From positions 544,001 through 608,000 of the forward strand of contig CBDCRW010000004.1 of NCBI GenBank assembly GCA_965221125.1: 64,000 nucleotides of DNA, written 5' to 3'. Position numbers and translations under genes: made by a program. Positions 33,087 through 61,575 of the stretch are shown here, piece after piece. The notes below the pieces were generated by a model that did no database searches, had not been told where the DNA came from, and saw nothing but the letters and a program-made list of their open reading frames with translations. Origin of the DNA: Alphaproteobacteria bacterium. Lineage in GTDB: Bacteria > Pseudomonadota > Alphaproteobacteria > UBA828. How positions within the stretch are numbered: the stretch's first letter is position 1; each line of letters begins with the position of its first letter.

Positions 33087-33108
33087 GGATACGCAAACCT
33101 CTATTTGG

Positions 33109-34259: not shown

Positions 34260-34274
34260 GACGATTCTCCTTCT

Positions 34275-34676: not shown

Positions 34677-34780
34677 GTGTTTTTCGACGCGGTTGAACTT
34701 ATGGTGGGGTAAGCCCGTGTGTCCTTCTTATTGAAAGCGATGCTGGGCTCTCCATGTCTTCACTGTCGTGCGTAGGACCC

Positions 34781-34910: not shown

Positions 34911-35288
34911 GTCGGGTCTCAAAGGGCGGACGCTCGCGGTCGGTCTCTGTCGTCGCCGACGATGGCCAGGCATGGGGGTGCGGGTTTCGAGGCGGTCGGG
35001 CGGCCGATGGCAGCAACCGCGCGGATCGCCGCGACGACGGATCGCCCGGCCGTGCGTTCACCCCTGTCCGTACCCCGGTCAGAAAAATCGCGCGGGGCTT
35101 TTATTGCCAACGGAATTGCGCTAATGATCGCAGCAGGTTGACGGGCGACGTTCGGCGGGCGGATGTGTTTGTACGCCCCGCGCTGCGGCCGGGAGCCTCG
35201 GGGGCAATGCGATGCACAAGGTGGAGGACAGGCAGGTTCCGGCCCGCGCCGCGGCGTCCGCGCTGTCGTTCGACCCGCGCGCCCGAGG

Positions 35289-35345
35289 CGGCCGAATTTT
35301 TTCGGCCGGGGGCTTGACAAGGGGCGGTGACGCTCCCGGTATAAT
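35289..35345 (+). promoter_or_regulatory. Consensus -35/-10 hexamers with a 20-bp spacer and an upstream inverted repeat
   Basis: TTGACA 35314-35319, TATAAT 35340-35345; CGGCCGAA-TTTT-TTCGGCCG at 35289-35308. Confidence 0.6.
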
Positions 35346-35462
35346 CAGCCGGTCAGCCGGTCAGCCGGTCAGCCGGTCAGCCGGTCAGCCGGTCAGCCGG
35401 TCAGCCGGTCAGCCGGTCAGCCGGTCAGCCGGTCAGCCGGTCAGCCGGTCAGCCGGTCAGCC
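35345..35462 (+). repeat. Perfect 8-bp tandem repeat (TCAGCCGG) x14 plus TCAGCC
   Basis: Read directly; no spacers or mismatches. Confidence 0.98.
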
Positions 35463-35485
35463 CCACCTGGGTCTGCGCTCCGGCC

Positions 35486-38194
35486 ATGATCGCAGCGGCA
35501 TGGCCGCGCTGCCGGAAGGGGCCACCATCCCGGCCTGACGCCTCCCCCTCCGCCGGCAGGGGAAACGCTCGCCGGCTACCTTCTTCTCCCCGAACAGTCT
35601 TCTCCGGCGCGGGCCGCGCGGCGGCGGCGCTGCTGCTGTTGGCGCTGCCCTGCGCGCCGGGCCTGGCCGCCGACGGCCCTGAGGCCGCCCGGGAAACCGC
35701 CTACCCCGAAGGCGCGGTCGCCCGCGTCTTGAGCCTGCCGGCCGATACACATTCGGGCACGCCTTCGGACGCCTGGCGTCTGTCGGGACCGGACGCGGCC
35801 CGGTTCCGGGTCGAGGCGGGGGCGCTCCGCTTCGCCGCCCCGCCGGATTTCGAGAAGCCGGAGGATGCGGACGGCGACAACCGCTACGCGGTGACGCTGC
35901 GGCGCGCCGGTGCGGACGGCACGACGATTGCCGTCACCGTTCGGGTGCAGGACCGCGACGAGCCCGGCCGGGCCGTGTTGCGGCCCTGGCGCCCCGTCGT
36001 CGGCGAGCCGGTGACGGTGAGCCTGACCGACCCTGACCGCGCCGACACCGCCCCGGCTCCGACGGTGCAATGGGAACGCTGGCGGGCTCCCGGAGAGTGG
36101 CAGGCGATCCCGCGGGCGACCGGGCTGCACTACACCCCGGCGGCCGCGGACGCGGGCCGTCCGCTCCGCGCGGTGGTCTCATATGCCGACCGCCACGGGC
36201 CGGACCGGCAGGCGGTGGCCGAGCTGCCCAACCCCGTCGTCGGCCCGATGCTGTCCGCGCTCACGGCCCGCACCGACAGCGCCCGCTCGCGCCCGGCCTC
36301 CGAAGACCCCGCCCCGCGCCCGGCCTTCGATCCCCGCATCCTGCATTACGGGGTGCGGTGCGACGAGCGCGACGTGATGACGGTCTCGTTCTCTGCCCCT
36401 CCGGGCGTCCGGGTCTCGGTCAATGGCATCCAGCCCCGGCCGGGACAGGAGGGCTCGGCGGCGGTCCCGGTCACGCCGACAAGCGACGTGGCGGTGACGG
36501 TCGCGGCACCGGACGGGGCCTGGACGACCTACACGCTCCACTGCATGCTGGCCAAACTGTGGACGATCCGCACCGGGCCCGATCCCGCCCGGCCGCTGGG
36601 GGCGCTGCTCGCACTGACCGGGGGTCCCTGGGCGGCGGTCCTCGACGGGCACGGCGTCTCGCGCGCCCATGTCCGGGCCGAGGGCGGCGGGGCGGGCTTC
36701 TTCCTGCGTCCCTTCGGCTCCGGTCCCGATCTCCGCTGGGCGCATTTCGAGCAGATGCCGGAAGCGGAGCGGAAGACGCCAGGCGAGCCACTGCTCCGCT
36801 GGCGGGTGCTCGACCGGGACCTCACGCCGTTGCGCACCGTCGCCACGGCTCTGCCGCTGACCACGACGGGGCGGCACGACTTCCGGCTGCTGGCGGACGG
36901 CTCGACGCTGCTGATGACCTACGAGCCTTCGGTGCGGGACCTGCGGGGGCTGGGGTTCCCGGACCGCGACGGCAAGCCGTACGGCGCAGGCGTCGAGATG
37001 CAGGATTCTGCGATCCAGCTGCGGGGCCCGGACGGCCGGGTGCGCTGGACCTGGAACTCCTGGGGCCGGCTGCCGCTGGAGGACTGCGCCCAGCACCGGT
37101 TCCCCGGCGACTGGGCCCATGTCAACTCCGTCGAATGGACGGAACAAGGCGTGCTGGCGTCCTTCCGGGGCTGCTCGACGGTGGTCATGATCGACCCCGC
37201 CGCGCCGCCCGGCGAGGAGATCGTCTGGCGGATCGGCGCGAGCAACCTTTCTCGCGACGACTGGCAACGCCGCGGCCTCGGGCCGCCGCCGCTCCGCATC
37301 GTCGGCGACCCCGAGGGTGAGTTCTGCGGCCAGCATGCGGCGCAATTGCTGCCTCCCCCTCCGGGCCTGCGCCTGCCGCGCCTGCTGCTGTTCGACAACG
37401 GCGTGGCCTGCGTCATCGATCCCTGGACCGGCGAACCGCTCGGGCGGACCTCCGGCATCTACAGCCGGGCGGTGGAATACGCGCTCGACCTCGAACACGG
37501 CGAGGCGGTCTTCGTGCGCGACCACGCGCTCGGGGGCGCGCGCGACATGCTCGGCCATGCCGGCGGGCATGTCGAACCCCTGCCGGACGGCGGCTGGCTG
37601 GTGAGCTGGGGCGGCCTCGGCCGCGCGTCGCCGGACCGGGTCGGCGGAAAGCGGCCCTCGGACCTGGTGACGCGGGTCGATCCCGCAACCGGCATGGAGA
37701 GTTTCCGGATTGTGGAGGCAGAAAGTGACGGAGCCCACCTGCGTCCCCTGCCGGTGAGCCCGCTCGCGACGATGCGCGCGCCGGGCCGGCTCGCCGCCGT
37801 GCTGCCCGACGTGCCGCCGGCGGGGCATGGCGGCGCGGGAGAGACTGTCGAGGTCGCGGTGGCCTTCTCGCGCCCGGTGGCGGCGTTCGGGCCCGAGACC
37901 GGCTCCGTCGCGGTCGCCGGCGGCGCGCTGGCGGAGGCCGCACCGCTCGACGGCTTCGGCCGCCCGGCTCATGCCTGGCGGCTGGTGCTGGCGCCCTCGG
38001 GCGACGGGCCGATGGAGCTGCGGTTCCGGGCCGGCGTCGCCTGCGCGGGGTCGGCGCCCGGCATCTGCACGGCGGACGGAGAGCGCCTGCGCGGCGTTCC
38101 GGATGCGTTCGCGATCCCACGAAACATCGACGAAGGCGCCGCCCGGGACCGGGCGGCGGACGCGGGACAGGCAACCCGCAGCAGACAGAATTGA
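35486..38194 (+). CDS. Secreted cadherin/Ig-like plus arylsulfotransferase (ASST) domain protein
   Basis: Signal-like segment; cadherin-like PDFEKPEDADGDNRYAVT..V.V.DRDEPG; ASST motifs HDFRLL, DWAHVNSV, LASFR, GQHAA, LFDNG, SRAVEY; C-terminal Ig-like domain. Start uncertain. Confidence 0.82.
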   Translation: MIAAAWPRCRKGPPSRPDASPSAGRGNARRLPSSPRTVFSGAGRAAAALLLLALPCAPGLAADGPEAARETAYPEGAVARVLSLPADTHSGTPSDAWRLSGPDAARFRVEAGALRFAAPPDFEKPEDADGDNRYAVTLRRAGADGTTIAVTVRVQDRDEPGRAVLRPWRPVVGEPVTVSLTDPDRADTAPAPTVQWERWRAPGEWQAIPRATGLHYTPAAADAGRPLRAVVSYADRHGPDRQAVAELPNPVVGPMLSALTARTDSARSRPASEDPAPRPAFDPRILHYGVRCDERDVMTVSFSAPPGVRVSVNGIQPRPGQEGSAAVPVTPTSDVAVTVAAPDGAWTTYTLHCMLAKLWTIRTGPDPARPLGALLALTGGPWAAVLDGHGVSRAHVRAEGGGAGFFLRPFGSGPDLRWAHFEQMPEAERKTPGEPLLRWRVLDRDLTPLRTVATALPLTTTGRHDFRLLADGSTLLMTYEPSVRDLRGLGFPDRDGKPYGAGVEMQDSAIQLRGPDGRVRWTWNSWGRLPLEDCAQHRFPGDWAHVNSVEWTEQGVLASFRGCSTVVMIDPAAPPGEEIVWRIGASNLSRDDWQRRGLGPPPLRIVGDPEGEFCGQHAAQLLPPPPGLRLPRLLLFDNGVACVIDPWTGEPLGRTSGIYSRAVEYALDLEHGEAVFVRDHALGGARDMLGHAGGHVEPLPDGGWLVSWGGLGRASPDRVGGKRPSDLVTRVDPATGMESFRIVEAESDGAHLRPLPVSPLATMRAPGRLAAVLPDVPPAGHGGAGETVEVAVAFSRPVAAFGPETGSVAVAGGALAEAAPLDGFGRPAHAWRLVLAPSGDGPMELRFRAGVACAGSAPGICTADGERLRGVPDAFAIPRNIDEGAARDRAADAGQATRSRQN

Positions 38195-38207
38195 CTGGAG
38201 TGATGCG

Positions 38208-41200
38208 ATGATGACCGATGGTAACCGGAACGCAGGAACGCCCGTATCGCACGCCGCCGCGGATGGTCAGCGGCATTGCTCCCTTGGCGGCCGGAAATGG
38301 TTCCGGTCGTGGCTTGCCCCACTGGCCGGCGCCCGATCCGGTCTGCGAGCCCTGCTGCCGGTCTTGTTCGCATTCCTGCTGCTGGCCGGATGGACGTCCG
38401 GGGCCGGGGCAGTGACGCTCACCGCAAATCCCAGCTTTGTCTGCCAGGGCCAGACGGTGGACATAACCGTTTCCGGTCTGTCCGCCGGTGCATCGGATGT
38501 CTTTTATCTCGCTGGATCCAGCGGGACCGCGACTTCAGGAACCCACTACAGGATCCTGAACTCGGACGGCACTGAAATCAGTGACTACCAGGACGTAGCG
38601 GTCACCGCGGACGAAAACGGCAGATTTACCCTGCGGGTTCAAAACATCAGTGCAGATGGGAGCGCGGATTTTGAATCAGCCAACTACAATGACTTTGAAA
38701 TCATTTTTCATCCCTCCACACATGCCGACTGCGCCACCACCTCCGACGGCGTCACGGTCTCCCCGACTTCCCTTGCCCTGACCGAGCTCGGCTCGTCCAG
38801 CACCATCGAGAAGACCTACACGGTGGTCCTCGACACCGACCCGGGCGTCGACGTCACGATCACGGCGACCAACGGCGACGCCACCGCGGTCGAGGTGGAC
38901 ACCGACGCGGGCACGTCCGGCAACCAGAACACCCTGACCTTCACCCACGGCAACAGCGGCAACTGGAACACGGCGCAGACGGTGACGGTGCGGGCGCTGA
39001 ACGACCTCGACAGTGCGAACGAGTCCTTCAGCATCACGCACGCGGCGACCGCGGCGAGCGGCCCCTACAACGGCATCACCGTCGCCCCGGTGGCGGTGAC
39101 GACGGCCGACGCCGGCCACGGGGTGGTGGTGTCGAAGTCGAGCCTGTCGGTGGCGGCGAACGACGAGACGGACACCTACACGGTGGTTCTGAAGAGCGCA
39201 CCCGGCGGCACGGTGACGATTACGCCGACCTCGGGCGCGACGACGCGGGCGACGGTCTCGCCGGCCTCGCTCAGCTTCACCAACTCGGACTGGAACACGC
39301 CGAAGACCTTCACGGTGACCGGCAAGGGCCAGGGCTCGACCTCGATCAGCCATGCGGTGAGCACGGGCACGACGGCCTATCCGACGTCCCTGACGATTCC
39401 CGCCGTGTCGGTCACGGTGACGGCGGATTCGCGGCAGGTGCTGGACCTTTCGTTCAGTTCGAACAGCAATAACGAGGGTGTCTCCGCCATCCTGACCGTC
39501 ACCGCCACCGGCGGCTCCGGCAACGTGACGGTTACGGGCGGCACGGCGCTGCTGACCTTTTCGGGCGACGGCATCGCGTCTTCGGACTATTCAGTCACTA
39601 CGGCCTCCATCCTCGTCCTGTTTGGAGGCCCGCCCCCCTCCGCCCCTGTCGGCATCGACCTCGCCAGCGACAGCGTCGACGAGCCGAACGAGACGCTGGT
39701 TGTCGGCCTGCAGAACCTGCCGGCCGGCTACCGGGCCGGCACGACCGCCTCGGTCACGATCATCGACCGGAACCCCACCACGGTGACGCTGGCGGGCGGC
39801 GGCACGGTGACGGAGGACGGCGCGAACTCCGCGGACGTCACGGTGACGCTGAGCCGCAACCTGGTGGCCGGGGAGACGGTGACCGTGCCGCTGGCGATCA
39901 CGGGCGCCGGCATCGCGGCGGGCGACTACACGATCGCGCCGGCGCCGGGATCGAGCCTCAACAGGGGCGTGACGCTGAACACCTCGAACCCGCACAGCGC
40001 GGCGCAGCCGGCGGTGGTGTTCACGGGCCACGGCACGAACACGGTGCAGGTGGCGACGCTCCGGGTGACGGCGGTGCAGGACTCCACGGACGAGGGTGCG
40101 TCGGAGGCGCTCGCCGTGGGCTTCGGCAGCGGCAACCGGGCGGTCATGAGCAATCTCGACCGGGCGTCGGGCACCGGCACGACCGGCACCACGACGGCGG
40201 GCACGGCGACGGTGACGATCACCGACGACGACACGTCGGCGGTTCCGGAGGTCTCGATGGAGCTTCAGACCGGGGAGACCTCGAATCGCAACACCGCCGG
40301 GCAGCTGGAGCTTGTCGAGAGCGGGGGCGTGGACGGGGCGGTGTTCAACCTCAGCGCCGACAGCGTGCTGGTCTCGACCCTGACGGTGTGCCTGCGCCTG
40401 ACCGAGACCGGCGGCGACCTTGTGGCCGCGGCCGCGGAGGGCATCAGGACGGCCACGCTGACCAGCAGCGGCAACACCAACGGCGCCGGCATTTACACGC
40501 TCACCTGGGCGGGCGACACGGATGACGAGCGGAACAGCGTGGTGACGGCGACGCTGTTGGCGCCGGAGACGGCGGGCTGTTCGGCCGCGAACGGGACCTA
40601 CACGGTGGCGTCGGCGATGGCGTCGGACGCGGTGTTCATCGAGGACGACGACGCCACGACGGTCGAGCTCACGAGTTCCGACACGAGCATGGCGGAGGGC
40701 GACGCCTCGCAGACGGCGACGCTGACGTTCACGCTCGGGCGCCGGCTCCATGCGGGCGAGGTCCTGGTCGTGCCGTTCACGCTGGCGACGACGACGGGCG
40801 CGAGATTGCCCGGCCATTCGACGCCGGACTTCGCGGTGACGGCGGCGGGCACGGGGGTGACGATCGCGAGGCCCAACACGGCGACCCCGTCGGTGACCTT
40901 CACCGGCCACGGCACCGACACGGTGCGGACCGCGACGGTGACGCTGACGCCGGTGGCGAACCGGGACGACGGCGACACGGCGCGCGAGGAGATCGCGGCG
41001 ACGCTGGCGACCGACAGCGTGCTGGGTTCGACCGCGGGCACCGACACGACGGTCGGCGGCGGCGCCATGCGCCACGCGACGAACTTCGCGGTCGACCTGA
41101 CGCTGGAGGACGACGACGCGCCGGCCGGCGCCACCGAGCTGACGCTCACCCTGTCCTCGGCCTCGGCCCCGGAGGGGAGCGGCGGCACGCGCGACGTCAC

Positions 41201-44200
41201 CGTGACGGTCGCCAAGCCGGCGGGGTCGGCGCGGGTCAGCTACCGGCTGTGCTTCTCCGGCACCGCGACCCTGGACGAGGACGGCGAGCGGGCGCCGGGG
41301 GAGGACTACCGGGTCATCAAGTTCAACGGCGGTCAACAGACGGTGTTCCACGGCGGTCACATGGCGCTGTTCCACACGACGGGGGGCGCGCGCTGCGTCG
41401 GCGGCGGTTCCGTCACCTTCCTTGCGGGCGTGGACAGCCACGCCTGGCGGGTCCGGGTGTTCGGCGACGCCGTCAAGGAGAACGACGAGACGGTGGTGGT
41501 GACGCTCTCCGAGAGCGGGACCCCGCTGCCGGACGGCTGGTCGATATCCTCCGCGGGCAACCCCGCGACCCACACGATCGCCAACGACGACGCGCCGCAC
41601 GTCACGCTGCACGCCGTGGACCCGGTCGCGGTGGAGGGCAGCAGCACCGACACCGCCGCCATCGAGGTGCGCCTGAGCCACGCGCTCGAGGCCGGCGAGA
41701 CCCTGACGGTCAATCTGGACACGAACACCTTTATCTGGGGGAACTCCAGCCTGGACGGATCGCCGGCGGGCGTCGCCTACTCCAGACCGTCGGGCAGAGA
41801 GCACCGGCTGGTGTTCACCGGGCCGAGCGCCCCCGACCGGGCCCGGATCGTCCTTGAAGCGAGCGCGAACAGCGTGAGCGGCGACGGCCTCCAGAGCCGC
41901 GACCACTATGCGGAACTGACCAGCGTGACGGGTTACTCCGGCGCCACCCTGGACAGCCGGCAGGCGAGCCGGCAGTTCCTGCAGGTCATCGACAGCGCGT
42001 CCGCCGCGGGCCACGGCGTGACCCTGTCGGTGCATTCGTGGCCCGACGGCTCGATACGCGAGATCGGGGAGGGCGGCAAGGCGGTGCTCAAGGTCTCCGC
42101 CGCCGGCGGCAGGCCGGTATCGGTGACCGTCGCCGTGCAGCCGGTCACCGCGGACTTCGCCGACCTCGGCCGCGCGAGCGCGGGCGGCCACGGCCCCGGC
42201 GGCCCGGCGAACGCGACGGGCTGGGTCGCCTACAAGGAACGCGACGGGCACCAGGGCCTCGACCTCTACACGGTGAGCATCTTCGAGCAGCCCGCGCCCT
42301 CCGTGTACATGCAGATCCCCATCGTCGACGACGGCCAGGCCGAAGGGCCGGAGACCTTCCGTGCGTTCATCTACCGGACGCCGCCCGGCTACAAGGCGGG
42401 CGGCGGCCTCGCGGGCACGCGGGTGTCGACCGTCGAGTTCACCATCCCGGCAAGCGACGGCGGCCTGCCCCGGAACGCGGCCGCGGTCGAGGTCCCCGAC
42501 ACGCAGGTGGCGAACCTGAAGGTGACGAGGGTCGATGCGAGCACCGCCTCGGCGCGCTGGGACGCGGTCGCGCACGCCACCGGCTACGAGGTGGAGTGGG
42601 ACGCGCTCGACGGCAACGGGCGGTCGATCGCCGCCGGCCTCCACGCCGGCGTGACCGCCACGACGCAGACGATCGAACACCAGGCGCCGGGGGCGGCGTC
42701 GCTCAGGGTGACGGTGGCGCCGGAACATGTCGACGGCAACGGCGACACGCAGGTGCTGTCCGGCCTCGCGGCCACGGCGGTGCTCGACCTGTCGACGCCG
42801 CAGTCCGCGCAGGCGGATTCGATCCAGGCGGGCGCGGCGTCCTGCGACCTGGCGTCGGTGAAGGCGGACGTGAACCGCTATATCGGGGAGACGCAGTACG
42901 GCACGGCGCATGTGGCGCGCTGGAAGAAGGCGCTGGCCGGTCTGAACCGCGAGACCGGCGGCATGACCGCGGCCGGGGCGCGGCAGATGAAGGCGAAGTA
43001 TTCGCCGGGCCGCTGGCAGCCGGTGGTGGACGGCCTCGACTGCCTGGAGAAGGCCGCAACGCCGCAGGCGGAGACGCCGGCGGCGGTCCCCGAACTGAGC
43101 CTCGCGGCCGGTCCCGCCGTGGACGAGGGCGGCAACGCGGCGTTCACCGTCCATGCCGACCCGGCGCCGGCGGCGGAGCTGACCGTGGCCTTCACCGTCG
43201 CCCAGAGCGGCGAGTATCTGGACGCGCCCGGCGCGGGCAGCCGTCAGGTGACCCTGGCGGCGGGCGCCGCGAGCGCCACGCTCGCCATCGCCACGGCGGA
43301 CGACGGCGTGGACGAGCCCGACGGCTCGGTCGGCGTCACCCTCGATGCCGGCGCGGGCTACACCCTGGCGGCCGGCAAGGCGGGCGGCACGGTCGCGGTG
43401 CGCGACAACGACACGCCGGCGGTCAGCATCGCCGCCGGGAGCGGGGTGACGGAGGGAGCCCCGGCCGCGTTCACCCTCACGGCGAACCCGGCGCCGCATG
43501 CCGACCTGACGGTGACGCTGGCGGTGACCCAGAGCGGGGACTTCGCGGCTTCCGGCCAGACCGGCGCGCGGGAGGTCACGATCCCGACCGGGGGCAGCGC
43601 GTCCTTCGAGGTCGCGACGGTGAACGACAGCGCGGACGAGCCGGACGGCTCGGTCACGGCAACCGTCGCCGCCGGAACCGGCTACGCGGTGGCGGCCTCG
43701 CCGGACGACACGGCCTCGGTGGCGGTGGCGGACGACGACGCGGCGCCGGGGGCGCCCGCACTCGCCATCGGCGATGTGAGGGCCAATGAGGGCGACGGGT
43801 TCATGTGGTTCACGGTCACGCTGAGCCCGGCCTCGGACCGTCCGGTATCGGTCGATTACCATACCCGGGAGTCGAACCCGGTGTCGGCGCGCAAGGACAG
43901 CGACTTTCTCCAGGTCGATTTCGGGGGGGTCACGTTCAGTCCGGGCGAGACGAGCAAGCGGTTCTGGGTCTACCTGTTCGACGACAACCACGACGAGGAT
44001 CCGGAGACCTTCGAGGTCGCGCTGTCGCGCCCGACGGGTGGGGCGGTCATCGCCGACGGGGTGGCGGTGGGCACCATCGTCAACGACGACCCGATGCCGG
44101 CGGCGTGGCTGGCGCGCTTCGGGCGCACGGTGGCCGAGCAGGCGCTCGACGGCATCGCAAACCGCATCGCGGCGCCGCGCGAGGCCGGCGCCCGGGGCAC

Positions 44201-45671
44201 GCTCGCCGGGCAGGCGCTGAACCTCGGATCAAGTCCGAGGGCAGGGCCTGGGACGGGTTCGGGGTCTGACGGCGCGGCCGGTGGGCCAGGCGCGGCCAAC
44301 GATAACGCCGCAATGGGCAGCTTTTCCGCCGCCGGCGGCTTCGGAACGCCGGCCGGCCGCTTCGGCACGGTCGGCTTCGGCCACGACGACCATGGCTTCG
44401 GCCAGGGCTTCGCGCAATCCCGCACCATGACGGGGCTGGAGGCGCTGCTGGGATCGAGCTTCACGGCGACGGGGGAGACCGACGCCACCGGCGGCAGCCT
44501 CGCCTTCTGGGGCCGGGCGGCGCAGTCGAGCTTCGACGGCAGGGAAGGCGCCTTCTCGCTCGACGGCGAGGCGACCACCGCCATGCTGGGCGCGGACTAT
44601 GCGCGCGGCAGGTGGCTGGTCGGGCTCGCGCTGATGCAGAGTTCCGGCGAGGGCGGCTATGCCGATACCGGCGCCGATGCGCAGCCCTGTCCCGACGACG
44701 CGGAGGAGGATCTCTGCGACGGCGCGGTGCACGCGGGCGACGGCAAGGTGGAGGCGTCGCTGACGGCCGCCGTCCCCTACGCGGCCATCCAGGCGTCCGA
44801 ACGGCTCAGGCTCTGGGGCGCGGCGGGCCATGGCACGGGCGAGGTGACGCTCAAGCCGGAGACGGACGGATCGCTCAGCTCCGACATCTCCTGGACCATG
44901 GCGGCGGCCGGCGCGCGCGGCGACCTGCTGGCGCCGCCGGGTAGCAGCGGTCCGGCGCTGGCGTTGACCGCGGACGGCCTCTGGGCGCGGACCTCGTCCG
45001 AGAAGACGCACGAGCTTGCGGCGTCGGACTCCGACGTGACCCGGCTCAGGCTCGGTCTGGAGGGCAGCTACCGCATCGCCCTGGAGGAAGGCGGCCACAT
45101 CACGCCCAAGGCGGAGGTGGGCGCGCGCCATGACGGCGGCGACGCCGAGACCGGCTTCGGGGTGGAAGTCGGCGGCGGGCTGGTCTGGAGCGATCCGGGC
45201 CTGGGGCTCAGCCTCGACCTCTCGGGCCGCACGCTGGTCTCCCACAGCTCGGACGACCTGGAGGACCGGGGCTTCGCGGTCTCGCTCGCCTTCGATCCGA
45301 ACCCGGCGACGAAGCGGGGGCCGTCCTTCAGCCTGCGCCAGGACTGGGGCGGCTCGGCCGAGGGCGGGCTCGATGCGCTGTTCCGCGCCGACCCGCTCGC
45401 CGACCGCGCGGGGAGCGCCGAGCCGGAGAGCCGCTGGCAGGCCGAAGCGGCATACGGCTTCCCGGCCTTCTCCGGACGCTTCACCGGCAGCCCGCATGTG
45501 GGGCTGGGGCTCGCCACGGGCGCGCGCGACTACACGCTCGGCTGGCGGCTCTCGCCGGCGGCCAATGCCAACGCGCCCGAGGTGTCCTTCGGCGTGAAGG
45601 CGACGCGCCGGGAGAACGAGGGGGTCGAGCCGGAGCATACGGTCGGGTTCGAGGTCAACGCGCGCTGGTGA
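38208..45671 (+). CDS. Giant adhesin/autotransporter (~2,487 aa) with Calx-beta, FN3 and Ig-like repeats and a C-terminal beta-barrel
   Basis: GGAG RBS before ATG 38208; repeated xDDD and D..DE.DET Calx-beta motifs; AWLARFGRTVA linker; barrel motifs RLRLGLEGS, RHDGGDAETGFG; terminal W. Confidence 0.88.
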   Translation: MMTDGNRNAGTPVSHAAADGQRHCSLGGRKWFRSWLAPLAGARSGLRALLPVLFAFLLLAGWTSGAGAVTLTANPSFVCQGQTVDITVSGLSAGASDVFYLAGSSGTATSGTHYRILNSDGTEISDYQDVAVTADENGRFTLRVQNISADGSADFESANYNDFEIIFHPSTHADCATTSDGVTVSPTSLALTELGSSSTIEKTYTVVLDTDPGVDVTITATNGDATAVEVDTDAGTSGNQNTLTFTHGNSGNWNTAQTVTVRALNDLDSANESFSITHAATAASGPYNGITVAPVAVTTADAGHGVVVSKSSLSVAANDETDTYTVVLKSAPGGTVTITPTSGATTRATVSPASLSFTNSDWNTPKTFTVTGKGQGSTSISHAVSTGTTAYPTSLTIPAVSVTVTADSRQVLDLSFSSNSNNEGVSAILTVTATGGSGNVTVTGGTALLTFSGDGIASSDYSVTTASILVLFGGPPPSAPVGIDLASDSVDEPNETLVVGLQNLPAGYRAGTTASVTIIDRNPTTVTLAGGGTVTEDGANSADVTVTLSRNLVAGETVTVPLAITGAGIAAGDYTIAPAPGSSLNRGVTLNTSNPHSAAQPAVVFTGHGTNTVQVATLRVTAVQDSTDEGASEALAVGFGSGNRAVMSNLDRASGTGTTGTTTAGTATVTITDDDTSAVPEVSMELQTGETSNRNTAGQLELVESGGVDGAVFNLSADSVLVSTLTVCLRLTETGGDLVAAAAEGIRTATLTSSGNTNGAGIYTLTWAGDTDDERNSVVTATLLAPETAGCSAANGTYTVASAMASDAVFIEDDDATTVELTSSDTSMAEGDASQTATLTFTLGRRLHAGEVLVVPFTLATTTGARLPGHSTPDFAVTAAGTGVTIARPNTATPSVTFTGHGTDTVRTATVTLTPVANRDDGDTAREEIAATLATDSVLGSTAGTDTTVGGGAMRHATNFAVDLTLEDDDAPAGATELTLTLSSASAPEGSGGTRDVTVTVAKPAGSARVSYRLCFSGTATLDEDGERAPGEDYRVIKFNGGQQTVFHGGHMALFHTTGGARCVGGGSVTFLAGVDSHAWRVRVFGDAVKENDETVVVTLSESGTPLPDGWSISSAGNPATHTIANDDAPHVTLHAVDPVAVEGSSTDTAAIEVRLSHALEAGETLTVNLDTNTFIWGNSSLDGSPAGVAYSRPSGREHRLVFTGPSAPDRARIVLEASANSVSGDGLQSRDHYAELTSVTGYSGATLDSRQASRQFLQVIDSASAAGHGVTLSVHSWPDGSIREIGEGGKAVLKVSAAGGRPVSVTVAVQPVTADFADLGRASAGGHGPGGPANATGWVAYKERDGHQGLDLYTVSIFEQPAPSVYMQIPIVDDGQAEGPETFRAFIYRTPPGYKAGGGLAGTRVSTVEFTIPASDGGLPRNAAAVEVPDTQVANLKVTRVDASTASARWDAVAHATGYEVEWDALDGNGRSIAAGLHAGVTATTQTIEHQAPGAASLRVTVAPEHVDGNGDTQVLSGLAATAVLDLSTPQSAQADSIQAGAASCDLASVKADVNRYIGETQYGTAHVARWKKALAGLNRETGGMTAAGARQMKAKYSPGRWQPVVDGLDCLEKAATPQAETPAAVPELSLAAGPAVDEGGNAAFTVHADPAPAAELTVAFTVAQSGEYLDAPGAGSRQVTLAAGAASATLAIATADDGVDEPDGSVGVTLDAGAGYTLAAGKAGGTVAVRDNDTPAVSIAAGSGVTEGAPAAFTLTANPAPHADLTVTLAVTQSGDFAASGQTGAREVTIPTGGSASFEVATVNDSADEPDGSVTATVAAGTGYAVAASPDDTASVAVADDDAAPGAPALAIGDVRANEGDGFMWFTVTLSPASDRPVSVDYHTRESNPVSARKDSDFLQVDFGGVTFSPGETSKRFWVYLFDDNHDEDPETFEVALSRPTGGAVIADGVAVGTIVNDDPMPAAWLARFGRTVAEQALDGIANRIAAPREAGARGTLAGQALNLGSSPRAGPGTGSGSDGAAGGPGAANDNAAMGSFSAAGGFGTPAGRFGTVGFGHDDHGFGQGFAQSRTMTGLEALLGSSFTATGETDATGGSLAFWGRAAQSSFDGREGAFSLDGEATTAMLGADYARGRWLVGLALMQSSGEGGYADTGADAQPCPDDAEEDLCDGAVHAGDGKVEASLTAAVPYAAIQASERLRLWGAAGHGTGEVTLKPETDGSLSSDISWTMAAAGARGDLLAPPGSSGPALALTADGLWARTSSEKTHELAASDSDVTRLRLGLEGSYRIALEEGGHITPKAEVGARHDGGDAETGFGVEVGGGLVWSDPGLGLSLDLSGRTLVSHSSDDLEDRGFAVSLAFDPNPATKRGPSFSLRQDWGGSAEGGLDALFRADPLADRAGSAEPESRWQAEAAYGFPAFSGRFTGSPHVGLGLATGARDYTLGWRLSPAANANAPEVSFGVKATRRENEGVEPEHTVGFEVNARW

Positions 45672-45764
45672 GGCATGGCATGGGCCGATGACCGCGCCCG
45701 GGAGCGGAGACCGTCCGATGCGGCCTCCGCTCCGGCGGCGACGCCCGATCCCGGCGGCTGAGCC

Positions 45765-46471
45765 GTGGCGCGTCGGGTCGGCGGATGGGACGCGGTGCGG
45801 GCCTGGCGCTTCATCCGCGCGAGCAAGGCGTACCGCGCGGCCTGGGCGAAGCGTCTCCCGATGCCCGGTCTGCCCGAGCGGGCGCCGTTCCCGGTGCGGC
45901 TCCAGACGTCGGTCGATCTCGCCGCCATGGCCTGGGGCATGGCGGCCTTTGAAGATCCTTATGCGGAACGGCCGCTGGCGCCCTTCTGGACGCATGCCGG
46001 GGTGATCGACGGCCGGGTGACGCGCGATGCGCCGCCGCTGGTCCGGCTCGCGGCCGAGGGCGGGGCGACGCTTGACGGGCTCCGCCTCGCCGACGGCGCG
46101 CTGATGCTCCGGATCGAGCGGCCGGGCGTGTCGGTTTCGGTCCGCCTGCCGCGGGGCGCGGCGTTTCCCGACGATGGCGGGCTGCGCCTCGTCCTGGAAC
46201 GGGAGGTGGCCGCCATCGAGGACATCTGGGCGGGGTTCCCGGCCCCTCGATCGGGGCGGGCACGGGGGACGGGGACGGTGAGCTTCTGCTGGCGCTGGAA
46301 AGCGAGGCGGAGGGGCTCACGCAGAAGGACTATGCGCTGCGGCTCTGGACGCCGGAGCGGGTCGCGGAGGAATACTACACCGGCAGCTGGATGCATGAGC
46401 GCGTCAAGCGGCGCTTCGCCAGGGCAAGGGCGGTCCTGAAGCGGTATCGGGACATGGCGACGGGCAAGTAG
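45765..46471 (+). CDS. FseA-like transcriptional activator (DUF6499 + DUF2285) split by a -1 frameshift near 46260-46275
   Basis: Frame 0: AWRFIRASKAYRAAW...WGMAAFEDP. Frame -1: ELLLALESEAEGLTQKDYALRLWTPERVAEEYYTGSWMHERVKRRFARARAVLKRYRDMATGK* (TAG 46469-46471), which resembles the DUF2285 HTH. Confidence 0.72.
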
Positions 46472-46869
46472 TCCGCAGGACTCGGCGCGCCGGCTGCCGG
46501 TAAGCGCCGCGTTTTCGTTTCCGATTGAAATCGACGCGGAATCCCCGGTTCGGATCGACGAGACCGCCGGTGACGGTCACGCCGGGTGCATTTCATCCTT
46601 GTTTGTCCGAACCCGTCGAACGTCACCGTCGCGCTCGCCCGGCCGCCGCGGACGGTCGCGACGGGCGCTGGGCATCCACCGCCGATTCTCACTGTAGCCA
46701 CCGCTTCCCGCGCGGTCGCCGGCCTGGCCGAGTAACGGAGCCGTGCGGGCCGAACCGCGCCTGCCGATATCCCCCGCGCCGGACCGCCATGCGTCTCCAT
46801 GGAGGGGCAATCCGGTCCCGGCCCGGCCGGGGACCCGCCGCGAGCACATGGACGCGAATTCGCAGTCCC

Positions 46870-46945
46870 GGCGCCGATCGGCGGCGATCGGCGCCCGCTG
46901 GCGGTCAAACTGAGGGGCGTTTTTCTGCACCCGAAAATCGCCCCT
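46870..46945. repeat. Two adjacent inverted repeats upstream of the excisionase gene
   Basis: GGCGCCGATCG-N4-CGATCGGCGCC (46870-46895, perfect) and AGGGGCGTTTTTC-N7-GAAAATCGCCCCT (46913-46945, 12/13). Confidence 0.8.
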
Positions 46946-47033
46946 ACCCCTCCCCGCCCTTCTTCGCTCCGATGCCCGCACATGCGCCCCGAGCCCCGGG
47001 GCCGGTCGGGACAGGCAGCAACGGGAGACGGCA

Positions 47034-47261
47034 ATGACGGACGGGGAGACGATCTATCTGAACACGCGACAGGCGGCGGCGCATCTGGGGCTGTCGACGC
47101 GCACGCTGGACCGCTACCGGGTGTCGGGCGAAGGGCCGGTGTTCCTGCGCTTCGGCGGCCGGGTGCGCTATCTGCGCGAGGACCTCGACGCCTGGGCGAA
47201 GACGCGCCGGCGCAAGTCCACCTCCGACGACGGCACCGCGCTCGCCGGAGCGGGCCGGTGA
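47034..47261 (+). CDS. RdfS/AlpA-like excisionase (recombination directionality factor, winged HTH)
   Basis: YLNTRQAAAHLGLSTRTLDRYR..GEGPVF.RFGGRVRY...DLDAW...STSD; GGAG RBS. Confidence 0.87.
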   Translation: MTDGETIYLNTRQAAAHLGLSTRTLDRYRVSGEGPVFLRFGGRVRYLREDLDAWAKTRRRKSTSDDGTALAGAGR

Positions 47262-47299
47262 GGGGCGCCGCCGAACGGGCGGTTGCGGCGGCAGCCGGG

Positions 47300-47608
47300 A
47301 TGAACCGCACGGTCATCGCGCTGCGCGGTATCGGAACCATCGCGCTGGTGGCGACGGTCATGACGACCGGGTCCGATCTCGCGCTGGCGACCACGGACAC
47401 GACCTTCGACGCGCCGCTCGACACGGTGCAGGACATCGTGGGCGGCACGGGCGGCCAGCTGGCGGCGGCCTTGGCCGTCGGCGCGGCGCTGGTCGGCTCC
47501 GTGCTGCGCTTCAACGCCATGCAGCTGATGGGCGCGGTCGGGGTCGGCATCGCCGCGGGCGCAGGCACCGGCATCGTCACCGGCCTCGTCGGCACGGCGA
47601 TCGTCTGA
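47300..47608 (+). CDS. traA: Conjugative pilin (TraA/VirB2-like)
   Basis: Leader plus two hydrophobic helices, immediately before traL; alternative in-frame GTG start at 47258. Confidence 0.72.
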   Translation: MNRTVIALRGIGTIALVATVMTTGSDLALATTDTTFDAPLDTVQDIVGGTGGQLAAALAVGAALVGSVLRFNAMQLMGAVGVGIAAGAGTGIVTGLVGTAIV

Positions 47609-47619: not shown

Positions 47620-47913
47620 ATGAACGAGAGCGCCCGCCATGCCATCCCGCGCCGGCTCGACGATCCGGAGCGCTGGCTGTTCTGGACCGTGGACGAGGCG
47701 GCGGTGCTGATGGGCCCGGCCCTGCTCGGGCTCGCGGCCAACCAGTTCGTCACCGGGCTGGTCGCCGGCGTCGGCGGCTGGCTCGCGCTGCGCCGGGTCA
47801 AGCGCGGCGGCGGGGCGAACATCGCGCGCTACGCCCTCTACTGGTTCCTGCCGGACTTCGTGCTGCGCCTCAGGGCGACGCCGCCGAGCCACCTCCGGCG
47901 CTTCACCGGCTGA
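47620..47913 (+). CDS. traL: F-type TraL
   Basis: IPRRLDDPERWLFWT.DE...LYWFLP...PPS..R.F.G. Confidence 0.9.
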   Translation: MNESARHAIPRRLDDPERWLFWTVDEAAVLMGPALLGLAANQFVTGLVAGVGGWLALRRVKRGGGANIARYALYWFLPDFVLRLRATPPSHLRRFTG

Positions 47914-47922
47914 GGCGGGGTC

Positions 47923-48489
47923 ATGCGGCGTCTCGATCTCGACAATGCCGTGCGCCGGGTGCGGGACATCCGCCTGGCGCTCAGCCTTCTGCTGGTGCTC
48001 TCGATGACGGCCAACCTGGCGCTCACCGTGGGGCTGGCGAACCGCGAGGCGGCGACCGTGCTGCTGCCGGCGGCGGCCGGGCCGGAATGGGCGGTCGGCG
48101 GCAGCCGGATGGAGCCCGGTCCCGCGGGAACCCGCTATCTGGAGGATATGGCGCGCACGGTGGCGGTGACGCTGCTGACGCTGACGCCGGAAAACGCCGC
48201 CCATGTGCGCCTCGCGGCGGCGCGGATGAGCCACCCCTCGGCAAGGGGCGCGATCGGCGCCTGGGTCGAGGCAGAGGCGGCGCGCATGGCCGGGCGCGAC
48301 CTCGCCAGCGCCTTCTACCCCGACAGCATCGAGGCCGACCCGGAGCGTCTCACGGTGGAGATCGCGGGCGAGCTGGTGAGCTGGATCGGGCGCGAGGAGG
48401 CGGCGCGGGAGGACCGGCGCTACCGGCTCGCCTTCCGCCTCGACGCCGGCCGCATCGGCCTGCTGCGCTTCGAACAGATGGAGGATTGA
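47923..48489 (+). CDS. traE: F-type TraE
   Basis: N-terminal TM, YLEDMA...L.LTPEN, SAFYP; position after traL. Confidence 0.88.
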   Translation: MRRLDLDNAVRRVRDIRLALSLLLVLSMTANLALTVGLANREAATVLLPAAAGPEWAVGGSRMEPGPAGTRYLEDMARTVAVTLLTLTPENAAHVRLAAARMSHPSARGAIGAWVEAEAARMAGRDLASAFYPDSIEADPERLTVEIAGELVSWIGREEAAREDRRYRLAFRLDAGRIGLLRFEQMED

Positions 48490-48491
48490 GA

Positions 48492-49283
48492 ATGGCACGG
48501 ATTTATCGGCAGGTCGTCGCTGCGGCATCCCTCATGCTCGCGGGCGCGCTCGCCCAGCCCATGCCGGCCACCGCGATGCAGCTTCTGGAGGCGGTCGACC
48601 ATGCCGAGCTGTCGGCGGAGGTTTCCGCGACGGAGGTCAACCGCATCGCGCTCCTGGGCGACCGGGCGGTCCGGGTGGTGCGCGCGCCGGGCGGGTTTGC
48701 GGTCGAGCACGACGCCGCCACCGGCGATCTCTACCTGCGGTTGGTCGAGACGGGCCTCGGGACGGGCGGCCGATACGCGGAGGCGAGCCTCTTCGTCGGC
48801 ACGGAGAAGGGCTTCACCTACCGGCTGACGCTCACGCCTTCCGACCGGGACGCGGCGCAGATCCTGATCCGCAATGCCGACGCCATGCCGGGAGCGTCGG
48901 TCGCCGATGACGCCGGCGCGGCATCGACGAGCGATCCGCACATTGCCGGGCTGGTCCGGCTGGTGCGCGCGGTCGCAAGGCGGGAAGCACTGCCGGGCTA
49001 TTCCATCGAGGCTGCCGCGACCGGCGTCGGCGATCCGCTCGCTGTCGGCATGCGGCTGATCGAGACCTGGCGGGGTCCGCGCTTCCGGGCGCTCGTGTTC
49101 GAGGCTGGCCGTTCCGCGCTCTCGGGCGGGGACGGCGCCGCGGGCCTCGCCGGGACCATCGCCCGGAACATCGGAGCGGGCCGCGTTGCGGCGCTCTGGC
49201 TGGCCGGGCCCGGCAGCGGCCCGAAGGGCGGGCGGCTCGCCGTGGCGGTCATGGACACCGCCGCTTCCGGAGCGCCGCGATGA
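48492..49283 (+). CDS. traK: F-type TraK
   Basis: Signal peptide, S..EVNRI, GDLYL, LFV.TEKGFTY.L.L.P. Confidence 0.87.
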   Translation: MARIYRQVVAAASLMLAGALAQPMPATAMQLLEAVDHAELSAEVSATEVNRIALLGDRAVRVVRAPGGFAVEHDAATGDLYLRLVETGLGTGGRYAEASLFVGTEKGFTYRLTLTPSDRDAAQILIRNADAMPGASVADDAGAASTSDPHIAGLVRLVRAVARREALPGYSIEAAATGVGDPLAVGMRLIETWRGPRFRALVFEAGRSALSGGDGAAGLAGTIARNIGAGRVAALWLAGPGSGPKGGRLAVAVMDTAASGAPR

Positions 49284-50575
49284 GCGCGCGGCAGGACAAT
49301 GCCGCCGCTGCCGACTCCGGCGCGGTGCGTCGGCGCCAGCTGCTGCTGTTCTCGGTCATCGCGGCGGCGGGGCTGTTCGCGGTGGCGCTCTGGATGGGCG
49401 CGGGCGGCGGCACGGCTCCCGCACCCCGGAGCGGCATCGAGGCCGGCATCGTCGAGCCCGACATGGCCGAGAAGGTCTGGACCCGACGCTCCGAGGCCCG
49501 GCTCGGCGGCATCGAGCGCCGGCTCAACGACATGGAGCGGGAGGCGAAGGAACTCGAAGGCGAGAACGCCGAGCTCCGGGCGAGGCTGGAGCAGGACGCC
49601 GACAATGCCCGCGCGGTGATCGACAGGCAGGCCGCCACCATCGCCGATCTCGAACGGCGGTTGCAGGGCGGCGGCTCCCAAGCGGGGGCAGTTCCAGGCG
49701 ATGGCACTGCGGCGGGTGGGTATTTCAGCGTGCCGGCGGCAACGCCGTCGGCCGGCCGGAACGGACAGGCGCAATCGCCCGCGCCGGCCCTCACGATCGA
49801 GACCTTCGAGCTCGAAGGCGAACCGCACTCCTCGGCGGCAGGATCGCGCAGCGGCCCCGAACTGGTGGCCGATTCGGTGGCGAAGCCGGTCGGGGCCTGG
49901 CTGCCGGCGGGCACCCATGCCGAGGCGGTGGTGCTGGCCGGCGTCGACGCCTCGGCCGGCATCTCGTCGCAGGGCGATCCCCGCCCGGTGCTGATGCGCA
50001 TCACCGGCCCCGCATGGACGGCAGCCGAGGACGGCATGGCGCTCAAGGTCGATGTCGACGGCTGCACGGTGACGGGCGCCGCCCATGGCGACCTCTCCTC
50101 GGAGAAGGTCTATGTGCGCTTCCGGACCATGACCTGCGCCGGGCCGCGTCCGGGCACGGTGGTCGAGACGCCGGTGGCGGGGTTCGTCGCCGGTTCCGGC
50201 AAGACCGGGGTGCGCGGGCCGGTGGTGAGCCGCGAGGGCGCGCTGGTCGAGAAGGCCTTCCTCGCCGGCATGGTCTCCGGCGTCGGCCAGGGCGTCTCCC
50301 AGGCGTTCCAGCCCCAGGCGGTGGCGACGGGCGCGGGCGGCGCCGCGGTCGCCAACACCGCGCTCGGCGATATCGGCCGCGCCGGCCTCGGGGCGGGCGC
50401 GTCGTCGGCCGGGCAGAAGGTTGCCGACTACATGATCCGCCGCGCCGAGCAGTACCAGCCGGTGATCCAGCTCCAGGCCGGCACGAAGGTGACGCTGGTG
50501 TTCCTCGAAGGCGCCCGCATCGACGGCCGCGCCTTGCAGCCCCGGAAGACGCAATCCGACAACGGAGGAAAATGA
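49280..50575 (+). CDS. traB: F-type TraB (VirB10-like)
   Basis: TM plus coiled coil, LPAG...A.VL.GVDA, GDLSSEKV..R, DYMIRRAEQYQPVI. Confidence 0.92.
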   Translation: MSARQDNAAAADSGAVRRRQLLLFSVIAAAGLFAVALWMGAGGGTAPAPRSGIEAGIVEPDMAEKVWTRRSEARLGGIERRLNDMEREAKELEGENAELRARLEQDADNARAVIDRQAATIADLERRLQGGGSQAGAVPGDGTAAGGYFSVPAATPSAGRNGQAQSPAPALTIETFELEGEPHSSAAGSRSGPELVADSVAKPVGAWLPAGTHAEAVVLAGVDASAGISSQGDPRPVLMRITGPAWTAAEDGMALKVDVDGCTVTGAAHGDLSSEKVYVRFRTMTCAGPRPGTVVETPVAGFVAGSGKTGVRGPVVSREGALVEKAFLAGMVSGVGQGVSQAFQPQAVATGAGGAAVANTALGDIGRAGLGAGASSAGQKVADYMIRRAEQYQPVIQLQAGTKVTLVFLEGARIDGRALQPRKTQSDNGGK

Positions 50576-50576
50576 G

Positions 50577-51173
50577 ATGAGCAAGGGGAAGAATTGCGCG
50601 CCGCGCATGATGTCACTGCCGGCTGCCGCGATCGCAACGCTGCTGCTGGCGGGCTGCTCGTCGGGCCATGTGGGCGACGACTGGCAGTGCCCGCTGGCGG
50701 CGGGCGGGTCCTGCGCCAGCGTCGCCGCCGCCGATCCGGCGGTGCCGAAGACGGATGCCGCGCCGGCAGGGGCGCCCGGACAGCCGATCCAGCTGCTGCC
50801 GCGCGAATGGAACGCGGACGGAGTCGATACGCGACCGCCGGCGCCCCGATCCTGCCAGGCCGACTGCGGCTTCGATCCCTTCGGATGGCTCGCCCGGCTG
50901 TTCGGAGCGGAGACCGGCGGGGATCGCCCTGAAGCGAAAGACGCCGGGCCGACAGCGACGGAGGCCGCCCCTGACATTGCGGCCGCGTCCACGTCTGGTT
51001 CCCCCGTGATCGAGGAGACGCCAGCAGAGAACGACCCCGGTGCCGACGATCTGCGCACCGGGGAGACGGTGGCGCGCATCTGGATCGCGCCCTTCGTCGA
51101 TGCCGAGGGCGTCTACCGCGAGGCCTCCCATGTCCGGGTGGTGCTGGAGCCGGCCGGCTGGAGGCTGAAGTGA
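50577..51173 (+). CDS. traV: F-type TraV lipoprotein
   Basis: Lipobox LLAGC, WQC...G.CAS, R..E.V.RIWIAPFVD..G. Confidence 0.88.
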   Translation: MSKGKNCAPRMMSLPAAAIATLLLAGCSSGHVGDDWQCPLAAGGSCASVAAADPAVPKTDAAPAGAPGQPIQLLPREWNADGVDTRPPAPRSCQADCGFDPFGWLARLFGAETGGDRPEAKDAGPTATEAAPDIAAASTSGSPVIEETPAENDPGADDLRTGETVARIWIAPFVDAEGVYREASHVRVVLEPAGWRLK

Positions 51174-54378: not shown

Positions 54379-54379
54379 C

Positions 54380-55934: not shown

Positions 55935-55937
55935 GCC

Positions 55938-57340: not shown

Positions 57341-57381
57341 ACCCGATGAAACGAAACAATCATCAAGACACTGACAAGGCC

Positions 57382-61517: not shown

Positions 61518-61575
61518 TGGCTGGCAAGGGCAGGCAGCCCATGAGACCCGGGTTCGCAGGGAGCCCCCATATATA

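Follow-up and report, generated by a model that had tools for sequence, protein, structure and literature searches.

A frameshift-split FseA/RovC-like regulator gene behind a repeat-preceded giant adhesin gene: a plausible transfer switch in an alphaproteobacterial integrative element

One of the closest described relatives of the locus analysed here is the FseA (msi172-msi171)/RdfS pair of ICEMlSymR7A, an integrative and conjugative element (ICE) from Mesorhizobium. The binding target of FseA is an inverted repeat upstream of the rdfS promoter, and synthesis of FseA depends on a +1 programmed ribosomal frameshift (PRF) at UUUC, located after the DUF6499 domain and beside a WGL motif, which takes place in 4-13% of translation events; the same +1 PRF at UUUC beside WGL is reported for about 61% of the published FseA homologues (PMC10359603, PMC4755241). 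In the published survey, sequences without a distinct AWEFLRRN motif were discarded (PMC10359603), and both FseA homologues on ICEs without quorum-sensing genes (PMC4755241) and rdfS genes heading conjugation operons (PMC11963761) have already been published. The locus compared with this system lies at positions 35,289-47,608 of a 64,000-nucleotide stretch of DNA (hereafter the window; positions 544,001-608,000 of contig CBDCRW010000004.1, forward strand, assembly GCA_965221125.1) from an alphaproteobacterium of the UBA828 lineage, and carries, in this order, a promoter-like element with a short tandem array, genes for an arylsulfotransferase-fold (ASST-like) secreted protein, a giant autotransporter adhesin and a split FseA/RovC-like regulator, rdfS and F-type transfer genes. 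Unless otherwise given, positions are those of the window and features lie on the + strand.

The activator RovC of the Yersinia type VI secretion system T6SS4 (PDB 6xz5) is the only solved protein that matches both halves of the regulator significantly. The identity is only 20% over the aligned part, and RovC, unlike the regulator described here, is encoded in a single frame and controls a secretion system. In Haemophilus influenzae, hmw1A and hmw2A carry perfect arrays of 7-, 8- or 9-bp units, in 12-38 copies, in the promoter/5' region, and array length modulates their expression (PMC2651432). The present locus is similar in that large secreted adhesin genes stand behind perfect short-unit arrays, but here the array reaches from the -10 hexamer to about 23 nt short of the start codon, is made of GC-rich GCCGG+NNN units, precedes an operon that ends in a regulator gene and belongs to an uncultured high-GC alphaproteobacterium.

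It is considered probable, if only slightly so, that the region is the ICE-borne copy of a modular cassette in which an array-set adhesin operon supplies a frameshift-limited regulator that activates rdfS and the tra genes. The array is taken to be hypermutable, and its length would set the mRNA or protein output of the adhesin operon in a cell lineage; a small, frameshift-limited fraction of this output would become active regulator. The full-length regulator would require a rare -1 recoding event, most likely ribosomal, because the DNA-binding domain lies in the -1 frame. The regulator would then bind an inverted repeat upstream of rdfS and switch on rdfS-tra, leading to excision and conjugation. 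The label "ICE transfer switch" is thus plausible for this locus.

All features listed by the first-pass annotation of this DNA (promoter, 8-bp repeat, ASST-like gene, autotransporter gene, split regulator gene, gap of about 560 bp, RdfS-like gene and tra genes) were recovered at the same places, including the gap of 13 nt ahead of the autotransporter gene and the gap of 93 nt with a small open reading frame (ORF) ahead of the regulator gene. Its proposal of an FseA-like activator also stood, on a RovC profile match of the C-terminal half (E 2.2e-6) and a fold match of the N-terminal half (E 5.5e-5). The frameshift of this activator was confirmed (24 of 26 loci), with the correction that the shift is -1 here and +1 in FseA. 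The name "DUF6499/DUF2285 gene" was corrected at the level of Pfam, as set out below.

The frame-0 part of the regulator (45765..46268) contains a DUF6499-like N-terminal domain with the motif AWRFIRAS and the middle domain; its ORF runs over 45765-46439, and the tail after 46268 is not conserved. The C-terminal DUF2285-type helix-turn-helix (HTH) domain (46253..46471) is read in the -1 frame. DUF6499 and DUF2285 are now PF20109 and PF10074, respectively. PF20109 matched neither the window protein nor any other part of the genome, and PF10074 matched the -1-frame piece with E 0.0093 and 17 bits against a curated cut-off of 26.4 (20.2 bits for the best copy in the same genome, 23.5 bits for the in-frame homologue P0032); Pfam and NCBIfam gave nothing usable on the regulator halves at default thresholds. 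The family assignment was therefore made on profile, fold and transitive evidence.

A C-terminal profile built from 22 copies gave residues 193-245 of RovC 6xz5 as its top match (E 2.2e-6), which makes this domain a homologue of the extended-turn HTH of RovC and FseA. The AF2 model of window residues 1-165 (75-sequence alignment; mean pLDDT 83.4, pTM 0.76) matched RovC in a Foldseek search against the PDB with E 5.5e-5, probability 1.00, TM 0.53 and rmsd 2.8 A over 129 columns, and RovC was the only match at E <= 0.001, the runner-up having E 0.27. RovC was also the sole match at E <= 0.001 for the model of P0032, a natural homologue with both halves in frame; this full-length model is of low confidence (pLDDT 58) and was used only for this top match and for the four C-terminal helices, which have pLDDT >80. 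An exhaustive profile search with the N-terminal half returned 362 clusters, and of the 62 clusters scanned, 26 matched PF20109 with E <= 0.01, 12 of these scoring higher than the cut-off, and 5 matched PF10074. The distant relative P0135 carries both PF20109 and PF10074 (the latter with E 4.6e-17), and the helix-2 motif reads AWRFIRAS in the window protein and AWxFLRRxP in the consensus of the 75-row alignment. The regulator is a divergent member of the FseA/RovC kind.

The frame change is a -1 shift in the G-rich linker ahead of the DNA-binding domain; reading stays in frame 0 through the WGM motif and the entire middle domain. The recoding site (46251..46270) contains CGGGGCGGG, which is invariant in 19 of 19 copies, with CGGGGGA kept in 18 of 19 (alignment A6). 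The -1 offset of the C-terminal domain was found in 24 of the 26 loci with both halves, the two exceptions being degraded, and in all 22 intact copies inspected; the loci in this state span approximately 60-93% protein identity. Among database homologue clusters, the tail is shifted in 84 of 87 assessable clusters and in frame in 3. Synonymous and non-synonymous codon differences (1753/2957 in the -1 frame versus 860/4052 and 368/4163 in the other two) indicate that the -1 frame, which is open to a conserved stop, is under purifying selection. Several of the loci look, by their record names, like short-read assemblies, and short unitigs cover the site without gaps, so that a homopolymer sequencing error is unlikely. 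The recoding is very probably programmed, because the shift is kept in 24 of 26 loci and 84 of 87 homologue clusters, and it is most likely ribosomal. In our own reading of the alignment, the positions that vary between the two G runs follow the pattern of third codon positions in the -1 frame, which mildly favours slippage at the first GGGG.

A separate translation of the C-terminal domain as a QseM-like protein was considered and rejected, because 11 of the 22 copies have no ATG, GTG or TTG in the -1 frame upstream of this domain.

The distant paralogues of the same genus (L063, L061/L062, L059 and L060) are also split at the linker between the middle domain and DUF2285; four need a -1 shift and one (L060) needs a +1 shift. 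The slippery-looking runs at the linkers of those needing -1 vary: G5A6C, directly followed by a stop in frame 0, C5G3, and a G-rich motif identical to that of the window.

At bacterial -1 PRF sites such as those of dnaX and IS3-family transposases, a -1 shift yields the full-length protein as the minor product, with a G-rich Shine-Dalgarno-like stretch at or just before the shift site. The present site resembles these in its direction and in this G-rich stretch, and differs from them in having GGGG quadruplets that would allow single-tRNA slippage in place of an X XXY YYZ heptamer and in having no supported downstream stimulator.

Compared with FseA, the regulator shares the DUF6499-like N-terminal domain, the middle beta-sheet domain and the DUF2285 HTH, the split into two frames with an active protein predicted to arise by a rare frameshift, a G-rich tract at the shift site, and a gene position upstream of an inverted repeat and of an rdfS that heads conjugation genes. 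It differs in that the shift is -1 in the linker before DUF2285 with WGM in frame, whereas FseA shifts +1 at UUUC after DUF6499 beside WGL, and in the motif AWRFIRAS as opposed to AWEFLRRN. The two systems also differ in their surroundings. Here the gene appears to be driven from a giant adhesin operon, an F-type type IV secretion system (T4SS) is combined with a TrwC relaxase, the geometry of the inverted repeat is another, and neither TraR/TraI nor a QseM-like stand-alone domain was found. The first-pass annotation had seen no luxR or luxI. No LuxR autoinducer-binding domain was found in the genome, which is 92% complete; no LuxI was found either, in a search whose control also gave no match. 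The genome search for a QseM-like stand-alone domain returned none.

The first-pass annotation had placed the activator as the last gene of an adhesin transcript, and a position directly behind an autotransporter gene was found in most loci. Of 31 assessable loci, 26 have the 3' end of an autotransporter gene no more than 150 nt upstream of the regulator start, and 29 have it within 1 kb. The converse fails, as many adhesin genes of the same type have no regulator downstream. In the window, a bridging ORF of 28 codons (45675..45761) fills the 93-nt gap, starting 3 nt past the autotransporter stop and ending 3 nt before the regulator start. The gaps of the window clade measure 93-146 nt and are bridged in this manner in all seven members (window, L042, L001, L002, L004, L010 and L011), with ORFs beginning 3-4 nt past the adhesin stop and ending 2-3 nt before the regulator start, while the other adhesin-regulator gaps measure 14-19 nt and have no obvious ribosome-binding site. 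The bridged arrangement suggests translational coupling. No sigma-70-like promoter with a 16-18-bp spacer and no + strand terminator-like site was found between the array and the regulator stop. This stretch includes the 3' end of the autotransporter gene, where a promoter of the regulator's own had been named as the finding that would speak against a shared transcript. The only + strand terminator-like site between array and rdfS is a weak hairpin with a T-rich run (46584..46598), 113 nt past the regulator stop, in a 210-bp block shared with a paralogue that has no rdfS. The regulator gene is probably co-transcribed and translationally coupled with the adhesin gene.

At the head of this putative operon stands a promoter-like element (35314..35345) with TTGACA at 35314-35319, a 20-bp spacer and TATAAT at 35340-35345. 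The sigma-70 scan does not list this pair because it required a 16-18-bp spacer. The two hexamers recur at 24 of 24 module sites, with a spacer of 20 bp in 21 and 23 bp in 3; one module copy in the ICE of this genome has TAAAAT instead of TATAAT. Read as codons, the hexamers would use TTG (28 of 730 Leu codons), ACA (7 of 555 Thr) and ATA (6 of 238 Ile), each less than 4% of its family, and they are therefore taken to be conserved as DNA-level signals. The array itself (35345..35462) consists of 14.8 copies of the 8-bp unit TCAGCCGG with 100% matches in TRF. It begins at the -10 hexamer, ends about 23 nt before the ASST start codon and is read as a simple-sequence contingency tract between the two.

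Variation in repeat length, which had been suggested as a possible part of the switch, was seen between copies among the 24 promoter-array-leader sites counted across five genomes (the handles G003 and G014 denote one genome). Their units are of the 8-bp GCCGG+NNN type or of one 7-bp type, the arrays span 45-318 nt with copy numbers of 5.4-39.8 where scored (TRF or script), and TRF-scored arrays are 98-100% perfect; these lengths come from contigs, as reads cannot be placed inside the repeat. The paralogous module at C4:17551, on the same contig, has 29.8 units of TCAGCCGG, and paralogues with identical flanks differ in array length alone, e.g., 139, 59 and 115 nt in L075, L077 and L078. Three exact copies of TCAGCCGG were not found in five related genomes, a negative that is misleading because the units differ between modules; the arrays of these genomes were recovered by TRF and pattern search instead. 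The same promoter, array and leader at 24 places in five genomes is more than chance.

A candidate leader ORF of 108 aa (35212..35538) spans the promoter and the array and ends 53 nt past the ASST start codon. It is probably not a gene. Its frame is open in all modules and needs rare codons. Relative to the main start, the leader frame overruns at 14 of the 24 sites, stops at an ATGA overlap at 5, is fused at 3 and is not assessable at 2, a skew that is unexpected if array length modulo 3 is irrelevant, in module copies that are not independent.

Downstream, a 562-bp intergenic region separates the regulator stop (46471) from the first transfer-operon gene (47034..47261), which encodes an RdfS-like winged-HTH excisionase or recombination directionality factor (HTH_17, E 2e-11). 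RdfS 8dgl is the only solved match of this protein at E <= 0.01 (E 9e-13), and the gene heads a conjugation operon, with a candidate pilin gene and traL-traC directly behind it. An inverted repeat with 13-bp arms and a 7-bp centre (46913..46945) lies 89 nt ahead of the rdfS start; no second copy was found elsewhere in this genome with up to 2 mismatches allowed per arm. It is kept in seven of seven rdfS-linked loci examined, the deepest branch included; L019 and L058, which are identical, have a degenerate right arm. This repeat is the best candidate for the regulator target, analogous to the FseA box. Short direct repeats (about 10 bp, 2-3 copies) occur immediately upstream of it (46869-46895), and different but similarly placed direct repeats occur upstream of rdfS in L021 and L019; a second protein, such as RdfS itself, could bind at these repeats.

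Besides the window, 5 of 22 assessable loci (L001, L004, L011, L019 and L021) have an rdfS within about 1.1 kb behind the regulator, with two further rdfS-linked cases in related genomes, and in one locus the regulator is followed by IS66 elements and then traC. All rdfS-linked copies are of the long-gap type, and the deepest split of the family, in a tree that is midpoint-rooted for drawing only, has such copies on either side; a well-supported short-gap clade (98/100) is nested near the group of the window. Synteny mining, which had been put forward as a check, recovered the module order across genomes and the direct rdfS-tra junction in only five of the 22 assessable loci and the window, and the module is not specific to this junction.

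Several observations weigh against the proposed switch. Only one of the five complete modules in this genome and 5 of the 22 assessable loci elsewhere precede rdfS, and the remaining modules adjoin housekeeping genes, integrases or IS elements, so that the regulator may serve the adhesin module rather than transfer. The geometry of the inverted repeat differs from that of the published FseA box, whose hexamers are spaced 15-16 bp, and the repeat could equally be an RdfS-binding site or an RNA hairpin. The window protein stays below the curated Pfam cut-offs, and the 20-bp spacer of the promoter-like element falls outside the sigma-70 optimum. The shift site (46251-46270) offers GGGG quadruplets only, in place of a canonical X XXY YYZ slippery heptamer. 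A hairpin that RNAalifold predicted in the shift region consists of invariant bases, with 0 compensatory pairs in its helix, and downstream of the site no covarying structure was found. The RNA-library run X16 contributed a few short low-depth contigs of 90-95% likeness within 38520-45649, and none of them bridges genes. Co-switching of adhesion and transfer is a reasonable inference that is weakened by the many copies away from rdfS.

Rather unlikely, and still to be taken seriously, is the explanation that the regulator controls the adhesin modules, acting on the module's own promoter or on other adhesin modules as RovC does on a secretion system, and that its adjacency to rdfS-tra reflects only the insertion site of the cassette. 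Nearly every strong-tier regulator gene sits directly behind an autotransporter gene, an rdfS is absent from the vicinity of most copies, the promoter may need an activator in view of its 20-bp spacer, and RovC shows that the family is not confined to ICE control (PMC10359603). Against it stand the upstream sequences of the modules, in which no conserved inverted repeat or other shared sequence was found beyond the -35 hexamer, where their similarity starts, the rdfS-linked arrangement, which spans the deepest split of the family and keeps its inverted repeat, and the many autotransporter genes of the same type without a regulator behind them. The array, for its part, could act in translation rather than as a rheostat of transcription or in the 5'-UTR, with a leader ORF running through it so that array length modulo 3 decides between a stop at the TGA overlapping the main ATG, a fusion and an overrun. 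Such a leader has an open frame from an upstream ATG in the copies analysed (preceded by GGAGG in AT2 and AT4), 22 of 24 arrays are followed by a start/stop overlap ATGA (one GTGA), paralogues with identical flanks show all three frame states, and neither unit length, 7 or 8, is divisible by 3. It is nevertheless judged unlikely: the hexamers would be read as the rare codons TTG, ACA and ATA, the leader start codon would not be on the mRNA if transcription begins after TATAAT, a fusion would put more than 100 residues before the signal peptide, and the uneven split among paralogous copies is not a valid statistical test.

The frame change itself might be overcome at the DNA or RNA level, either by slipped-strand mutation in a G run, giving heritable ON variants and a second phase-variation site, or by slippage of RNA polymerase. 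The in-frame homologues (3 of 87 assessable clusters) can be read as single-base gains in different G runs, as judged from their protein sequences, the distant paralogue L060 needs +1 at the same G-rich linker, and neither a canonical slippery heptamer nor a stimulatory structure is present. The G runs are only 4-5 nt long, and known hypermutable tracts are far longer. A mutational switch would moreover give a mixture of ON and OFF states, whereas -1 is kept in nearly all loci at approximately 60-93% protein identity. Among the rows shown for four public runs, which are all Logan contigs that drop rare variants, no indel was seen at 46251-46270 (32 further indel rows exist). On this evidence, slippage at the DNA or RNA level is quite improbable. 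That the regulator genes are decaying pseudogenes whose C-terminal domain is never made is highly improbable; degraded copies do exist (L016, L022, L023, L026, the third ICE copy and the IS-disrupted C7 paralogue), but the shift is retained with an invariant site, and selection on the -1 frame up to its conserved stop speaks against decay.

With regard to the adhesin genes, the ASST-like gene (35486..38194) encodes 902 aa with a match to PF05935 (Arylsulfotrans, E 3.6e-14) and a long, signal-peptide-like N-terminus, and its paralogue at C4:17812-20556 is 87.5% identical. The autotransporter gene (38208..45671) has its ATG 13 nt past the ASST stop, preceded by GGAG, and encodes 2487 aa with a Calx-beta match (E 2.7e-23) and, within its last 399 aa, a PF03797 beta-barrel (E 3.9e-11; 43.6 bits, the cut-off being 26). 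At its N-terminus, a hydrophobic core comes after a long n-region, so that the C-terminal PF03797 barrel and the N-terminal signal peptide, the latter judged by eye, identify a type-Va autotransporter.

Promoter, array, leader, an optional ASST-like gene, adhesin and regulator genes form a repeated multi-copy cassette. Five complete copies are present in this genome, of which four belong to one ICE, and the second full copy (29.8 units) lies in an island with integrases on both sides. Three further adhesin-regulator pairs occur behind the ICE relaxase gene, each with its own promoter-like element and with an array built from another unit. An IS21-type element interrupts the paralogue on contig C7, which is therefore uninformative. 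An ORF of 134 aa with a weak NikA-like ribbon-helix-helix match (E 0.12) is present at C4:614298-614702 (L038:6298-6702); it recurs ahead of three ICE adhesin modules, after the second and fourth regulator copies, with 83-88% DNA identity, and may belong to the cassette or to its duplication unit. In the third ICE regulator copy (C4:627610-629678), only the first 56 codons are recognisable, and the next gene, on the opposite strand, encodes an IS256/Mutator-family transposase; the module here seems to have decayed.

Behind rdfS, the candidate pilin gene (TraA/TrbC-like, 102 aa; 47300..47608) has a weak TrbC/VirB2 match (E 0.1) and is assigned mainly by its position before traL. It is followed by traL-E-K-B-V-C, trbI, an S26 peptidase gene, traW, ssb, trbC, traN, traH and traG (47620..64000), extending past the window. 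Pfam and NCBIfam matches, e.g., TraC TIGR02746 with E 1.4e-172, classify this as an F-type (MPF-F) T4SS, and TraL, E, K, B, V, C, W, TrbC, N, H and G in one operon agree with the F-type assignment made earlier. TraU and TraF were not identified among the ORFs scanned, and 53737-54378 and 59308-60057 have no family match. The single-strand-binding protein gene (55938-56330) lies inside the transfer operon between traW and trbC, and two more ssb genes are found elsewhere in the ICE.

The window has a G+C content of about 72% and contains, in order, housekeeping genes, an rRNA operon, a tRNA-Met gene, a low-GC island (31-34.7 kb) and the module under study. The island (31000-34700; 46-52% G+C versus 72%) lies immediately 5' of the module and encodes a DUF1353 protein, three ORFs without family match, and a Gp49/HigB-like toxin (34275-34631, - strand) with an HTH antitoxin (33933-34259, - strand). 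Homology between the window module and the second module copy begins only at about 34597. Beyond the window, the same contig carries genes for a coupling protein and a TrwC relaxase, the three adhesin-regulator pairs, replication and repair genes, and integrases, and the whole is an ICE of roughly 85 kb or more. The 3' part of tRNA-Met and about 20 nt beyond it (27416-27492) recur three times on the contig with 92-96% identity (C4:727803-727869, 758442-758486 and 704412-704459); they may represent attachment sites at the borders of a single integrated element or of several, with sizes of up to about 156-187 kb. ARAGORN called a 98-nt tRNA-Gly at 11953-12050 on the minus strand, within a long ORF and absent from the Rfam results, which is probably a false positive.

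The first-pass annotation had named no earlier description of the architecture. Only part of it is new: FseA homologues without quorum sensing and rdfS-first operons were already in print, and what is new relative to the main texts of the published work is the clade of FseA-like regulators with -1 recoding in the linker, its fixed coupling to giant autotransporters under short-repeat control, and its use in an F-type ICE. No paper naming both DUF2285 and an autotransporter was found, DUF6499 is named, among the matches listed, only in PMC10359603, and the main text of that paper mentions only +1 PRF, while its supplements may list other shift types.

As a more tentative and doubtful extension of the proposed switch, two stochastic devices in series, the array and the -1 frameshift in an adhesin-coupled activator, may gate horizontal transfer, with the extra cassettes feeding the switch in trans. 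If this is true, only adhesin-ON cells would make enough activator for rdfS-tra, and the adhesin would double as the cell-contact factor of the donor. Recoding-based throttling would also have evolved twice in one family, as +1 after domain 1 in FseA and as -1 before domain 3 here.

The clade is missed by the curated Pfam cut-offs and would also have been lost to the published AWEFLRRN motif filter, so that the reach of the family has been under-counted, and gene callers label these loci as hypothetical proteins of about 224 aa, missing the DNA-binding domain. FseA-RdfS is the best-worked example of an ICE keeping its transfer rare, and a second frameshift throttling, with another site and direction, would make the translation-limited activator look like a selected design principle and not a quirk. 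A regulator tied to a repeat-variable giant adhesin would offer host-associated bacteria a route for co-deciding surface adhesion and donor competence in single cells, and would extend promoter-proximal repeat control of the hmw type to high-GC, uncultured Alphaproteobacteria.

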